The notes: generated by a model not told the origin, from the letters alone. Numbered from the stretch's first letter, positions 22,537-44,807 are shown. The stretch: DNA of 64,000 nt from Eubacteriales bacterium (GCA_045537045.1 JAZSOS010000049.1:18143-82142), one strand, 5' to 3'. Numbers and translations: made by a program.

Positions 22537-23381
22537 CTATAACAGTATTTTTACAATTATATTCAGTAACATACACGAGACTATGCCGAAAAGTGTCGGC
22601 AATGCCGCGGCGACAAGCGTCCAGAGAAAGCTTCCGCTCTCTTTTTTTATTGTCATCAGAGTTGTTGAACACGGCCAGTGCATGAGAGAAAAAAGCATAA
22701 CGCTTATCGCGGTTTGTATCCCCCATCCGTTGCTGCGCAGAAGTGCGGAGAGCGTGCCAAGGTCGCTTATGTCCGTAAGCGACCCGCTGGCGGTGTATGC
22801 CATTATTATGATGGGAATAACTATTTCGTTGGCGGGAAGCCCAAGGATAAAAGCCATAAGGATAACACCGTCAAGGCCCAAAAGCCGCCCGAACGGGTCG
22901 AGAAAAGAAGAACAGTGGACAAGAAGCGTTTCCCCGCCGATTGCAATATTTGCCATAAGCCAGATAAGAAGACCGGCAGGCGCGGCTGCGCTTACTGCAC
23001 GGCCGAGGACGAATAGGGTTCTGTCAAAGACTGAGCGGATGATAACCTTGCCGACCTGAGGGGCGCGGTAGGGAGAAAGCTCGAGTGTAAAAGATGACGG
23101 AACCCCGCGCAGGAGGGTTGTCGACAGAAGCTTTGACGCAAGAAAGGACATAAGTATGCCGAGAAGGATAAGGCAGGTGAGGGAAGCCGCTGCGAGTCCG
23201 GATTTTAAAAGGCCTCCGCCACGTCCGATAAAGAAAATTGTAAGAATGGAAATAAGCGCGGGAAAGCGCCCGTTGCATGGAATAAAGCTGTTGGTTAGCA
23301 TCGCGATAAGCCGTTCGCGCGGTGAGTCTATAATTCTGCAACCGACAACCCCGGCGGCATTGCACCCAAATCCCATACACG
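22537..23381 (-). pseudogene. feoB: feoB 3' fragment (membrane domain) separated from its 5' half by the inserted element
   Basis: From ...[40 protein letters not shown]... onward it is a polytopic FeoB-type membrane domain. Codons upstream of 23381 (MTNTTAVPIFAYQISLSS) are element-derived. Confidence 0.85.
23377..23381. other. attL core (ACACG)
   Basis: The same pentamer occurs at the right junction (43746..43750). feoB-like coding sequence stops exactly here. Confidence 0.7.
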
Positions 23382-23663
23382 AGGATAGAGAAATTTGGTA
23401 TGCAAAAATAGGCACAGCAGTTGTATTGGTCATGTATCTTTAATTGAGTATTTAACGATGTTGAGTGTTGAATTGATTATACATCTTCACACCGCGGCAC
23501 CAAAAAATATAAAACGAACAGTGAATTTAAGAAAACACATGCTATCAGGCAACCAAAAACGGCTTAATTACTATGTTTTTCAAAGCAGATTTTGTCTTAA
23601 GCCATTCGCGGATGAGTTCGACAAAACTAAGCTTTATCGCCAATTCCACAACTTTTTCAAATT

Positions 23664-23703
23664 AAAAAATTGCACCTTGTTTAACTTCAAAGTGCAATTT
23701 TTC
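23664..23703. terminator. Hairpin with A-run and T-run flanks downstream of the nuclease-like gene
   Basis: AAATTGCAC...GTGCAATTT stem flanked by AAAAA and TTTTT. Confidence 0.55.
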
Positions 23704-23728
23704 TTTGTTTTATGCGATTTTGCCGAAA

Positions 23729-24394
23729 TTAATAGTAAATTGCAAAGTGGAAACAATCACTTTCCTTACCAACAAATGTACAGTTACACTCTTTTCCTTT
23801 GTATCCAATAGGAGTAATTTGAAGCCGTTGATAAGCTATCTCATAGTTGTACTCTAAGTCTGCTGTTCTTGTTGGGAACTGCGGTCTTATAAGAAAAGGG
23901 AAAAAGCACAACTTACTTTCATTTACAAGCGGCTTGCCTCCCTTACCTTCCCCTAACTGAATTATCTTAGAAAAAGAGTCAACGCAATTAAACCACGCTA
24001 TTATAAACGCTGACTTTCCTTTATTATCGTTGTTGATCTCACTTAGCAACCAATTAAAATCGTACTGTATTTCCTTCCACCCTTTACTGCACGAATACGT
24101 TCCTGATTGGGTTCTCCAGCTCCGCAAATACTTTAGTTCTATCTTAAAGCGTTTATTCTCAATGAAAATGTCATGATTAGTTTTACCTGAATCATCACTA
24201 TCTTCTGTCTTAGTTGTATACCTTGCCATATTTTTAAAGGGATATCCAACTCTCATCATCATATCAGTTTCGCTAAAACTTTTGTCTGCAACTTTTTTCA
24301 TTTCATCTGCAGAACAGTTTTTATAAGCTATATTCAATTCGTCAATGATAAGACTACAATTAGGAATAAGATACTGCTCTATTGTCAATTCCAA
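23729..24394 (-). CDS. Hypothetical protein with a PD-(D/E)xK nuclease-like motif
   Basis: ...NHDIFIENKRFKIELKYL... fits D-(X)n-E-X-K. The start was placed at the TTG at 24394, 9 nt after an AGGAG SD. The track starts at the GTG at 24403, which abuts the SD. Confidence 0.45.
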   Translation of the reverse strand: MELTIEQYLIPNCSLIIDELNIAYKNCSADEMKKVADKSFSETDMMMRVGYPFKNMARYTTKTEDSDDSGKTNHDIFIENKRFKIELKYLRSWRTQSGTYSCSKGWKEIQYDFNWLLSEINNDNKGKSAFIIAWFNCVDSFSKIIQLGEGKGGKPLVNESKLCFFPFLIRPQFPTRTADLEYNYEIAYQRLQITPIGYKGKECNCTFVGKESDCFHFAIYY

Positions 24395-42089: not shown

Positions 42090-43735
42090 GGGAACAACAG
42101 GTAAAAAAAGTTTATAGGACTGCTCTATATCTAAGACTGTCAAAAGATGATGAAGGAGCTGGGGAAAGCTCAAGTATTACAACTCAAAGAAGCATTTTAC
42201 AAGAGTATGCAGACAAACATGGATTGGTAGTTGTTGACGAGTATTCGGATGACGGGTTCTCCGGCACAAACTATGACCGACCAGAATTTAAACGCATGAT
42301 TGAGGATATTGAAAACGGTAAGATAAACTGTGTCCTTACAAAAGACCTATCGCGGTTAGGGAGAAACAGTGCACGAACAACAGACTTACTGGATGAATAT
42401 TTCCCTGCACACAGAGTACGTTACATATCCGTTATTGATGGTTATGATTCCTTTAATCTGACAAGCGGAACATCTATGACAGCATCGTTTATGACAGTCA
42501 TGAATGAGATGTATGCGAGAGATATAAGCAACAAGATACGTACTGCGTTTAACGCAAAAATGGAACGTGGCGAATGCATAGCGAGCTTTGCACCATATGG
42601 TTATAAGAAAGATGTGGAGCATGGCAATAAAAACCGATTAGTTATCGACTACCAAGTTGCGCATGTTGTAAAAGAAATTTTTCAAATGGCAGCAGACGGA
42701 AAAGCACCAAGCGAGATTGCAAAACACTTGAATAATAAATGTGTTGCGACTCCGGCAGTGTACCGTTGTATGTCTCGACCATATCTTAATGTTGATAACT
42801 ATACACAGCGCAAGGAATGGACTTCTGCTATGGTTTGTAAGATGCTGAAAAACGAGGTGTATTTAGGAAAGACCCTGCAAGGCAAGACTAACAAAATATC
42901 GTTCAAAAGCAAAGTAACACAAGCAAGACCAAGAAGTGAATGGATAGTGATTGAGAACACGCATGAGCCATTAATCACAGAGGAGATGTTCAACATTGTC
43001 CGAAATCGAAGTGTATCACGGCGTTGTTTGCCGACGAAAGGATTTACAAATGTTTTTGCCGGTATAGCCAAGTGTGCTGATTGCGGAAGAAATATGAGTC
43101 TTGCACCATCGAGGAAAAAGGGTACGACATATAATTTGTGTTGTGGCGGTTATAAAGCTTATGATTCCACCGAATGCAGTAATCACTTTATAAGTTATGA
43201 TTTGCTCTATGATGCCGTTCTTCAAGAGTTGCAAGGTTGGTTGGCGTTATCTCAAGATGACAAAACCAAAATAGCAAAGGAACTTGAGCAAGAGAAAATG
43301 CACCGGACAGAAAACACAGGAGCAAATCAAACAATTGCTAACATGAAAAAGAGAGTTGACGAGCTTTCTTTTTTGATGAAAAAGCTGTTTGAAAACTACA
43401 CATTTAACCGAATAAATGAAGCGATGTATGAAAAACTGTCTGCTGAATACAGTAATGAATTAACAGACCTTGAAAAAGCCATCGAAGATATCAGAGGCAA
43501 TGTTAAAGTCGAACAAGACAGAAAAGACAGATATAATAATTTCTTTTCTCTTTTGGAAGAAGTAACCGATGTCAAAGAACTGACAAAGCCACTGCTTCAA
43601 AAGTTAATTGAGCGGATAGAGATAGAGCAGGGTGAATACTACAAAGAGGAAAACGGAAAAAGGCTGAAAAGGCAGACTGTACGCATATATTATCGCTTTA
43701 TCGGATGTGTGGGAGAACAAGAAAAAACACCCTAA
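42086..43735 (+). CDS. Large serine recombinase (resolvase domain, recombinase domain, zinc ribbon, coiled coil, DUF4368-like tail)
   Basis: ALYLRLSKDDE...SITTQR catalytic region, LTKDLSRLGRN, Cys cluster CADCGRNMS...LCCGGY and C-terminal ...IERIEIEQGEYY...VRIYYRFIG. The stop lies 10 bp from the attR core. Confidence 0.9.
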   Translation: MREQQVKKVYRTALYLRLSKDDEGAGESSSITTQRSILQEYADKHGLVVVDEYSDDGFSGTNYDRPEFKRMIEDIENGKINCVLTKDLSRLGRNSARTTDLLDEYFPAHRVRYISVIDGYDSFNLTSGTSMTASFMTVMNEMYARDISNKIRTAFNAKMERGECIASFAPYGYKKDVEHGNKNRLVIDYQVAHVVKEIFQMAADGKAPSEIAKHLNNKCVATPAVYRCMSRPYLNVDNYTQRKEWTSAMVCKMLKNEVYLGKTLQGKTNKISFKSKVTQARPRSEWIVIENTHEPLITEEMFNIVRNRSVSRRCLPTKGFTNVFAGIAKCADCGRNMSLAPSRKKGTTYNLCCGGYKAYDSTECSNHFISYDLLYDAVLQELQGWLALSQDDKTKIAKELEQEKMHRTENTGANQTIANMKKRVDELSFLMKKLFENYTFNRINEAMYEKLSAEYSNELTDLEKAIEDIRGNVKVEQDRKDRYNNFFSLLEEVTDVKELTKPLLQKLIERIEIEQGEYYKEENGKRLKRQTVRIYYRFIGCVGEQEKTP

Positions 43736-43745
43736 ATTTCCATCT

Positions 43746-43750
43746 ACACG
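43746..43750. other. attR core (ACACG)
   Basis: Identical to 23377..23381. feoB-like coding sequence resumes exactly here. Confidence 0.7.
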
Positions 43751-44807
43751 TTGTCAGCCCCTGCTTTCCGCAGGCACCGCATTTTTTAAATATGCGGTCT
43801 AAGTTAAATGCAACGCGAGGGAGATATCCGAGGTCTTCCAAAAGTGTGAATAAAGGAAAGAATATTGCCATGGGCGGGAGCATTACGGAAACTACCCACG
43901 AAAGCGTGCGGTATACGCCGAAGACGAGCGCTTCGCACACCGGTGTTGGCAAGTGCAGGAAAGAAAGCAGACGGAAAATATCATCCTCAAGACCAAGCAG
44001 AAAACCGGACAAAAGTGAAGACGGGTAATTTGCACCCTCAATTGTCAGCCAGAATATTCCGAGAAGCATCAGGAGCATTATTGGAAATCCCAAAAGCTTG
44101 CTTGTAAGGATTTTATCTGCAAATCGTTCGCGGTACGAATAGCTACCAGAGTCCGGTTTCTTTACCGAAAGGCTGTAAATACGTTCGGCTTCACACGTAA
44201 GCTCTTCTGCCGAGTGGAAAGGAGTACGCTTGTGCGGCAAAGGGTCTGAAATAGCGGATTCTATGGTATCGAGAAGAGCATCAAGTCCCTTGCCGTCACG
44301 AGCGCGGGTTGCAACGACGGGAAGCGAAAGCTCCCGGGAGAGAGCGTCAAGGTCAATTTCTATTTTCTTCTTTTTTGCCTCGTCCATAAGATTTACGCAT
44401 ACAATTACGTTTTCGGCAATTTCTGCAGTTTGCAGAACAAGAATAAGATTGCGCTCGAGGCACGTTGCATCACAGACTACGACAACGGCATCGGAGAGAC
44501 CGGAATACAAGAAATCACGCGCCACCTCTTCCTCGGCAGAGGAAGGAGAGAGCGAGTATGTACCCGGAATATCGATGAGTACATAGCCGTGTCCGTTTCT
44601 TTCACAGAAGCCTTGCGCATTTGTCACGGTTTTGCCAGGCCAGTTACCGGTGTGCTGGCGCAGTCCCGTCAGCTCGTTAAAAACCGTGCTTTTGCCGACG
44701 TATGGGTTTCCGGCAAGTGCAATTATGCGGTCGTTCGGGTTTCGTTTTTTTATAGTAAGCGTACTGTCCGCGGCACCTTTGCCCACGGAGTCACGGGTAA
44801 GTCCCAA
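43746..44807 (-). pseudogene. feoB: feoB 5' fragment (G domain, helical domain and first membrane segments)
   Basis: G1 motif GNPYVGKST, then DIPGTYSL. The FeoB-like sequence ends ...[17 protein letters not shown]. The ORF then reads 13 element-derived codons to a stop at 43698. Confidence 0.85.

Follow-up and report, generated by a model that had tools for sequence, protein, structure and literature searches.

A recombinase-bearing island splits feoB, a gene for ferrous-iron transport, in a gut Clostridia bacterium at a recurrent insertion position

Mobile elements that reversibly interrupt a host gene are known for a short list of targets, among them sigK, spsM, comK and gerE. Here we describe an island located within feoB, the gene of FeoB, which is the main anaerobic importer of Fe2+. 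The window (the whole stretch of DNA analysed, 64,000 nucleotides of the Eubacteriales assembly GCA_045537045.1, JAZSOS010000049.1:18143-82142) derives from a host among the gut Clostridia; all coordinates given are those of the window, in which feoB and feoA lie on the minus strand. Its feoB is split by a mobile insert, and deletion of the insert in silico restores the gene. The mechanism that we propose is conventional; what is new is the target gene, the breadth of the clade of large serine recombinases (LSRs) using feoB, and the family to which the island belongs.

The skin element in sigK of B. subtilis (recombinase SpoIVCA) and of C. difficile (skinCd) is a non-infectious phage-derived element with a terminal LSR gene, as here, and it likewise interrupts a coding region between short direct-repeat cores from which precise excision rebuilds the open reading frame (ORF). 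Its target is a sporulation sigma factor, and its excision is terminal and specific to the mother cell (PMC5025042), whereas here the target is an iron transporter; and skin is a unique fixed remnant, whereas the window element belongs to a currently mobile, modular family of islands. SPbeta in spsM (SprA and SprB) and the Listeria phages A118 and phi10403S in comK also use an LSR site inside a conserved gene that is restored by excision, but in those systems the element is an inducible, complete phage whose directionality factor has been identified (PMC5499854, PMC4191935), while no virion genes were detected here. A preliminary description of the window had likened the element to skin and to the comK prophage; the likeness holds for the architecture but does not extend to a recognisable prophage. 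The gin element in gerE of B. cereus ATCC 10987 is, like a 3.0-kb feoB insert presented below (L058), essentially a recombination unit only and no prophage; its sporulation-specific excision was demonstrated experimentally (PMC5595907), whereas the feoB mini-element is known from sequence alone. The window element differs further from gin in its length of 20 kb and its cargo.

Transposons of the Tn4451/Tn5397 type have loose GA-centred targets, resistance genes and Mob/oriT functions. Their recombinases (TnpX/TndX) include the closest solved catalytic domain to that of the window LSR and have the same set of domains, including the C-terminal DUF4368. Here, in contrast, one defined codon of feoB is the target and no relaxase or Mob match appeared in Pfam-type scans, placing the element outside that family. 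In the TIGER survey of Mageeney et al. 2020 (PMC7192596) regulated gene integrity was judged operationally, by repeated disruption of a domain at the same position. The feoB insertions resemble the candidates of that survey in that a Pfam domain is disrupted without restoration by attP, by elements of one tight, genus-crossing integrase clade; feoB itself is absent from its text and from the supplements that were searched. A literature search found no paper linking feoB with serine-recombinase or prophage insertion, attB or active lysogeny.

The interrupted feoB and its restoration

The preliminary description had taken two minus-strand ORFs about 20 kb apart for the halves of a single feoB, and both ORFs were recovered, at 43698..44807 and 22537..23433. 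The features of the locus that bear on the insertion are the following.

22537..23381, minus strand: C-terminal half of feoB, residues 354-633 and part of codon 353, with the membrane/Gate domain, starting CMGFGCN
23376..23381: left TACACG core (attL), with a putative 2-bp crossover, CG, at 23380-23381
23382..23431: attP arm, present only in the LSR version of the island, with GAAATTT (23390-23396) 8 nt from CG, the inverted-repeat partner of AAATTTC
23382..43744: the insert proper, lying between the cores (20,363 bp at 37.7% GC), with backbone homology to loci L045 and L047 over 23432..41806
41805..42089, plus strand: small ORF of 94 aa, sharing 4 nt (ATGA) with the start of the LSR gene
42086..43735, plus strand: LSR of 549 aa, TnpX-like with DUF4368, the last gene of the insert, with the catalytic motif YLRLSKDD
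43734..43750: attP arm on the LSR side, with AAATTTC (43734-43740, overlapping the LSR stop codon), 8 nt and CG; right core at 43745-43750
43751..44807, minus strand: N-terminal half of feoB, residues 1-352 and part of codon 353, with the G domain and the first membrane segments
44814..45053, minus strand: feoA (79 aa), directly upstream of feoB in the same operon, an arrangement matching that of intact loci L001-L003

The insert had been described as about 20.4 kb long and AT-richer than its surroundings. Its measured GC content is 37.7%, compared with 46.8-46.9% in the flanks and 49-51% in the feoB halves, with a sharp fall at both edges, and the gene at its end (42086..43735, plus strand) does contain the domains of an LSR, as had been proposed. 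The left junction reads cccaTACACG followed by aggataga (repeat at 23376-23381), and the right junction ccatcTACACG followed by ttgtcagcc (repeat at 43745-43750). The ACACG core reported earlier is thus present at both junctions, but the identical direct repeat is TACACG, of 6 bp and not 5. Removal of 23382..43750 produced a single in-frame ORF of 633 codons plus stop, the length predicted.

As a 6-bp repeat is meaningless by itself, the weight of the argument rests on the length of the orthologues, the abutment of the halves, the gap-free alignment of the DNA and synteny. The joined FeoB matched its best database homologues along all 633 aa (91%, 89%, 90% and 88% identity, 100% coverage, E = 0), so that deletion between the repeats restores an ORF collinear with its orthologues. 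The junction in the intact orthologues is exactly the one predicted: the closest homologues are identical around it, within an invariant stretch of 26 residues, and the split codon, 353 (Thr, ACG), directly precedes the invariant CMGFGCN gate motif. In the same set of orthologues the N-terminal half corresponds to residues 1-352 and the C-terminal half to residues 354-633 (at 91.8% identity in the intact P0001), and the two halves rank the orthologues in parallel by identity, which confirms that the fragments are abutting parts of the same FeoB and not pieces of different paralogues. No second feoB-like sequence was found elsewhere in the window or inside the element. At the nucleotide level the joined sequence aligned without gaps across the junction with three intact loci (L001-L003, 82-84.5% identity), whose neighbourhood, SMC / feoA / feoB / DAPDH, is that of the window.

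The insertion falls in a conserved domain-coding region. Because it cuts off the G domain and the first helices from the invariant gate motif and the remaining membrane domain, with no replacement encoded in the island, the domain architecture indicates that FeoB must be inactive while the island is integrated. As found, the N-terminal ORF runs through 17 foreign codons into the element before a stop, ending at 43698. The C-terminal ORF begins at an ATG at 23433, 18 codons inside the element (MTNTTAVPIFAYQISLSS-CMGFGC...), and this element-supplied start might in principle allow expression of a truncated membrane domain.

The recombinase clade and its attachment site

The window LSR contains the serine-nucleophile resolvase, recombinase and zinc-ribbon domains of the large serine recombinase family (Resolvase PF00239, 7.9e-24; Recombinase PF07508, 3.6e-22; Zn_ribbon_recom PF13408, 1.8e-12) together with DUF4368, and matches a PHROG integrase family at 2.9e-102. 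Its closest solved relatives are TnpX of Tn4451 (2mhc, E=6.5e-26, catalytic domain) and SprA of SPbeta; the relatives found in IMG/VR were all at most 29% identical and had no link to feoB. Searches of genomes, metagenomes and protein collections yielded 20 related loci with an LSR at least 51% identical to that of the window, and 16 of them adjoin feoB at codon 353 (L004-L006, L008, L042-L044, L052, L053, L057, L058 and L132-L136), with LSRs 51-93% identical to the window LSR. They are listed by LSR similarity to the window and by the part of feoB that they adjoin.

L042, L044: LSR in a cluster of at least 90% aa identity; feoB N-half side, orientation as in the window
L043, L057: LSR in the cluster of at least 90% and at 91%, respectively; feoB C-half, opposite orientation, host FeoB only 59-73% identical
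L133: LSR 74%; C-half, 3.3 kb past the LSR
L052, L053: LSR 66%; C-half
L004-L006: LSR 60-62%; N-half and feoA
L132: LSR 62%; N-half
L134-L136: LSR 54%; both halves
L058: LSR 52%; both halves
L008: LSR 51%; C-half

Host FeoB proteins at these loci are only 40-90% identical to that of the window, both orientations are found, and the cargo varies in length, from 3.0 kb in L058 and 8.7 kb in L134 up to over 20 kb. That near-identical LSRs occur beside strongly diverged FeoB, in both orientations and with unrelated cargo, argues for repeated independent insertions by one integrase clade at the same position and not for a single inherited event. Both halves of feoB, with the element's own direct repeats, are present in three contigs or contig groups, namely the window, L058 (core ACCATGTG) and L134 (core ACCATGTGCAT), and deletion between the repeats restored ...LTMCMGFGCN... 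in each of the latter two. With a threshold of 52% identity, the feoB-targeting clade numbers at least 120 protein clusters. LSR loci at 39% identity or less had no feoB nearby. Taken together, these comparisons of sequence indicate that the DNA encoding the FeoB motif is a dedicated attB of an LSR clade in gut Clostridia.

The crossover was located by comparison of the attachment (att) sites. Reconstruction of attP gave AAATTTC-CATCTACA-CG-AGGATAGA-GAAATTT for the window and ATATTTC-TCTTACCA-TG-TGCATAGA-GAAATTT for L134, each with 7-bp arms placed 8 nt either side of the centre, and in L058 a perfect 9-bp inverted repeat lies 10 nt either side of TG. Nearly all LSR-side junctions have AAATTTC or a variant of it, 8 nt, and then the dinucleotide at the second and third bases of codon 353, which agrees with the host codon, reading CG for ACG and TG for ATG; among the ATG hosts, the orientation of the element follows the presence of TG or CA in attP on the LSR strand. 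The sites thus have the short attP/attB identity and imperfect inverted-repeat arms of serine-integrase att sites, around a putative crossover dinucleotide that in the window is most likely the CG at 23380-81 and 43749-50. An earlier placement of the crossover at CA, which left a 4-nt offset between the orientation classes, was replaced by the common centre at codon 353 once the attP inverted repeats had been aligned. The predicted attB is GCACCCAAATCCCATACACGTTGTCAGCCCCTGC and the predicted attP junction CCTAAATTTCCATCTACACGAGGATAGAGAAATTTGG.

The small ORF ahead of the LSR gene is recognisably homologous across most clade members, where it encodes 58-118 aa and overlaps the LSR start; equivalents were found in L004, L005, L041, L132, L133 and L134, whose LSRs are 54-100% identical, and they share the motifs SYNxDG, VERxF, INDIxKKYV and NTTVVD. 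The 94-aa product of the window has no Pfam or PHROG match. In related islands with a tyrosine integrase, an HTH_17 Xis-like gene occupies the same position, and from its position the small ORF may be considered a candidate directionality or accessory factor. Enzymes of the TnpX type can excise without a directionality factor, TnpX alone both excising and inserting through a circular intermediate. A consensus-based scan for promoters and terminators around the LSR gene found sites no more numerous than in shuffled sequence.

Several members of the clade have peculiarities of their own. The insert of L058 (L058:8657-11700, 3.0 kb, GC 42% vs 58%) encodes an LSR of 541 aa, a 230-aa ORF with no Pfam match and small ORFs. 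The element of L134 (L134:8887-17601, also in L135 and L136) is an 8.7-kb LSR element in feoB with a GC content of 46.6% vs 64% in the host; it encodes Cas9 (1353 aa) and an 88-aa ORF, and its CRISPR array (L134:16526-17542) has about 15 units with the repeat GTTTGAGAGTAGTGTAAATCTATGGGGTACTCAAAC. Gene calling gave neither cas1 nor cas2 in this element, and it appears to be a recombinase-borne type II CRISPR unit without adaptation genes. Its LSR, P0361, is present on 16 contigs. The apparent lack of an N-half in L135 proved to be a gap in gene calling, since tblastn revealed this half to be intact. Between the LSR and the C-half, L133 (L133:2653-5934) contains RelB, a 104-aa ORF and a GlgB-like amylase gene, and beside its junction lies a sequence (AAAAAACATCCTAAATTTCC) similar to the 3' terminus of another LSR gene; this locus may represent tandem accretion of two elements at one att site.

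Three of the 20 loci are not at feoB, namely L054, L056 and L055, the last with three tandem LSRs. The 3' end of the LSR gene in L054 (L054:1634-3037) and L056 is as in L052 and L053, and at the same point, directly after TCACCATGT, it meets a Peptidase_C39_2 gene, beyond which lie toxin-antitoxin genes of the Phd/PIN type. These two loci could be a secondary attB-like target (TTCCTGGGCGATGGGATG vs TGCCAGGGGCTGGGCTGC) or an unintegrated form. The remaining locus of the 20, the Logan contig L041, ends one base past the putative crossover (...CCATTTTCACGT), leaving its flank unreadable; such an assembly break is only a hint of att-site heterogeneity, from integrated and excised forms or from several hosts.

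Gene content and relatives of the island

The ORFs of the element listed here, and those of the LSR module listed above, were scanned against Pfam and PHROGs.

24469..25032, minus strand: small serine recombinase of the resolvase/invertase type, 187 aa (Resolvase E=1.8e-34, HTH_49)
26899..27483, minus strand: sigma-factor-like or helix-turn-helix (HTH) protein, 194 aa, with homologues in L004 and L132
27546..28052, minus strand: DnaJ-domain protein, 168 aa, a backbone gene also in L045 and L047
29172..29862, minus strand: toxin-antitoxin pair, with a RelE/HigB-like toxin (29533-29862) and an HTH antitoxin (29172-29552)
29999..30487, plus strand: PHD_like antitoxin-family protein, 162 aa (E=1.9e-30)
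33427..34689, plus strand: YonV_C-family (PF27199) P-loop protein, 420 aa, with a fold like that of superfamily 2 (SF2) helicases, the hallmark gene of the island family
34991..35674, plus strand: HNH-endonuclease-like protein, 227 aa (phrog_59, E=6.8e-7)
35886..36807, plus strand: two conserved ORFs of 149 and 150 aa, which always precede the tape-measure-like gene
36822..41738, plus strand: tape-measure-like protein, 1638 aa (PhageMin_Tail E=1e-22; phrog_4211 E=2.7e-84)

Several further HTH proteins are encoded in the island. The only phage-type matches were the tape-measure-like and HNH-like proteins; no capsid, portal, terminase or lysis genes were detected in the scans of the element's ORFs, and the full set expected of a temperate prophage (capsid, portal, terminase, tail and lysis genes) is not there. 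The whole element had no megablast match among 50,697 phage genomes. A prophage was accordingly rejected on the lack of detectable virion genes, and the element is a phage-related, non-autonomous island. PADLOC recognised no known defence system in it, its sole match being a weak, coiled-coil one of the tape-measure-like protein to JetC, and on this result the designation of defence island was rejected as well. The YonV_C protein, which has more than 2,000 homologues, carries Walker A (GSGKT) and DExx (LILDEV) motifs, and its AlphaFold (AF2) model (pLDDT 66, pTM 0.70) has XPD and DEAD-box SF2 helicases as best fold matches; an identification of this 420-aa protein as a terminase was rejected for that reason. 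A literature search on YonV returned nothing useful.

Two contigs of metagenome-assembled genomes, L045 and L047, contain the backbone of the window island at 81-97% nucleotide identity, sharing with it the resolvase, the DnaJ-domain protein, the YonV_C protein, the 149- and 150-aa ORFs and the tape-measure-like gene; the toxin-antitoxin genes are also kept in L045, and the small serine recombinase, a conserved backbone gene, occurs in L051 as well. The terminal gene of these two islands (L045:1-19700 and L047:1340-19450) encodes a tyrosine integrase (392 aa), with an HTH_17 gene ahead of it in L047, and both islands lie beside nagB, the glucosamine-6-P isomerase gene. Their homology to the window ends exactly at 23432 and 41806, which argues for an exchangeable integration module made up of the 94-aa ORF, the LSR gene and both att arms. 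Less closely related YonV_C islands (L048-L050) have tubulin-like, RdRP-like, radical-SAM, AbiH and Mrr cargo with Xis and a tyrosine integrase. In L048-L050 and in L005:582-3719, a Pfam RdRP protein (PF05183, 1045-1087 aa) stands in place of the tape-measure-like gene. L132 is a second island of the helicase and tape-measure type with an LSR, also inserted in feoB, in a host whose FeoB is of a type of about 715 aa. The same layout, with PF27199 in the middle of an island of 15-21 kb and a terminal integration module with either a tyrosine or a serine integrase, was found in the window, L045, L047, L048-L051 and L132. Judged from these alignments, the YonV_C-helicase islands are an uncharacterised family with a swappable integration module.

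Two patches of low GC were noticed in the host flanks, at 5001-6000 (40.0%) and 15001-16000 (37.3%), vs about 47%; the second overlaps a gene for a Mem_trans family transporter (15171-16139).

Explanations of the interrupted gene and their significance

In all probability, the locus arose by conservative site-specific integration of the 20.4-kb non-autonomous island into feoB by its own LSR, and ordinary integration into a conserved motif, with incidental and reversible inactivation of the gene, is the best-supported reading. The island would have entered the feoB attB at codon 353 by means of its TnpX-like LSR, and recombination between attL and attR by the same enzyme would excise the island as a 20,369-bp circle and make feoB whole again, as obtained in silico. 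The conserved small ORF upstream of the LSR gene might aid excision, and the LSR clade would carry very different cargo into the same site.

A number of observations weigh against this reading or parts of it. Within TACACG, AC or CA may instead be the crossover of the window copy, AC scoring nearly as well with 12 symmetric matches vs 13, and the CG centre is palindromic, which is unusual for LSRs and would imply that control of orientation is lost. An exact search of IMG/VR for the predicted attP junction had no match, the exact restored FeoB was not in a collection of 15 billion proteins and no empty site of the same strain was found; nor were relaxase or conjugation genes detected in the scans of the element's ORFs, so that no transfer route was seen. 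The sole substitution unique to the window FeoB at a column otherwise invariant among 92 homologues, N36Y, lies at codon 36 (44700-44702, minus strand; TAC vs AAC in L001-L003), in the G1/P-loop, where GNPNVGKS becomes GNPYVGKS. From the motif and the S. thermophilus sequence, we take Asn36 to be equivalent to Asn11 of S. thermophilus FeoB. In that protein Asn11 ligates the activating K+, and its mutation abolishes K+-dependent activation of the GTPase (PMC3153494). With N36Y, the restored FeoB might not be a fully active transporter.

Decay of the split gene was considered and rejected. The ratio of nonsynonymous to synonymous substitution rates (dN/dS) was 0.085 between the split feoB and intact orthologues and 0.083 among intact orthologues, and at columns otherwise invariant in 92 FeoB homologues the window had 1 unique substitution, with up to 7 in intact homologues. 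Such a low dN/dS fits a recent insertion and continued use of the gene alike.

A rival explanation is regulated gene integrity, or an active-lysogeny switch, in which the host or the island would time excision, by iron limitation, stress or development for instance, and permit FeoB only in cells where the island is lost or looped out, and the 3-kb forms with little besides the LSR would be domesticated, gin-like switches. We consider this explanation doubtful. The operational test of Mageeney et al. 2020 gives the result expected of a switch, the same domain being disrupted at the same position by at least two independent elements of one integrase clade, and both halves of feoB are intact, with dN/dS as low as in uninterrupted orthologues; however, a recent insertion explains the low dN/dS equally well, and targeting of a conserved motif is a generic way of finding sites in many hosts that requires no benefit to the host. 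The minimal, near-LSR-only element that persists in feoB with intact halves (L058) also fits a switch, as does the conserved small ORF, whose translation is coupled to that of the LSR and which might determine directionality, but the same type of LSR is also joined to DNA other than feoB (L054/L056), and N36Y hints that function is perhaps already compromised. The gene is not known to act in sporulation, and it has no known link to sporulation or to terminal differentiation. It is about as doubtful that feoB in gut Clostridia is a switched locus at which, as the sequence comparisons would allow, the LSR clade holds Fe2+ uptake off until conditional excision. Were it so, the 3-kb elements would be domesticated switches, and the Cas9-CRISPR and helicase/tape-measure islands would be hitch-hiking cargo; it would be the first case of regulated gene integrity over a metal transporter, and would offer natural orthogonal triples of LSR, attB and attP with one shared target.

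Improbable, too, is a dead-end insertion, in which the island would be fixed and feoB a young pseudogene, its loss tolerated through a paralogue or other means of iron uptake. The change of an otherwise invariant and functionally critical P-loop Asn in N36Y would suit a dead end, as would the failure to find either attP or an empty site of this strain in IMG/VR and the protein collection, and a second host paralogue is conceivable, since relatives such as Acutalibacter have FeoB proteins of two length classes, of about 629 and about 711 aa. Against it, the LSR gene is a complete ORF that keeps its catalytic motif, the two cores are identical, neither feoB half has lost its reading frame or shows more unique substitutions than expected of an intact gene (1 vs up to 7), and LSRs at least 90% alike in amino acid sequence occur in hosts whose FeoB proteins are 59-73% identical, which indicates that the module was recently mobile. 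Lastly, an assembly artefact, or a chance pairing of fragments of different feoB paralogues, might be suspected in a metagenome-type contig of 101 kb, where chimeras are possible, but it is effectively refuted by the canonical LSR att architecture of both junctions, by the same LSR-to-feoB junction on independent contigs from other samples, by the halves, which match adjoining parts (residues 1-352 and 354-633) of one set of orthologues and rank them in parallel by identity, and by a flanking synteny equal to that of intact loci.

On the reading that we prefer, ordinary integration with incidental and reversible inactivation, a metal-uptake gene would join the short list of host genes reversibly interrupted by mobile elements, and would do so as the target shared by a sizeable recombinase clade and not as a one-off. 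The clade may also be of practical use, in that it offers natural LSR and attP variants for one site of 30-40 bp, some differing only in the central dinucleotide and in orientation, for work on integrase specificity and as possible tools. Given the role of FeoB as main importer of Fe2+, gain and loss of such islands should generate heritable and reversible variation in iron uptake among gut Clostridia. Through the feoB site, furthermore, cargo of very different kinds enters the genome, among it a Cas9-CRISPR unit and the uncharacterised family of helicase and tape-measure islands, which illustrates the movement of defence and accessory genes in uncultured Oscillospirales.

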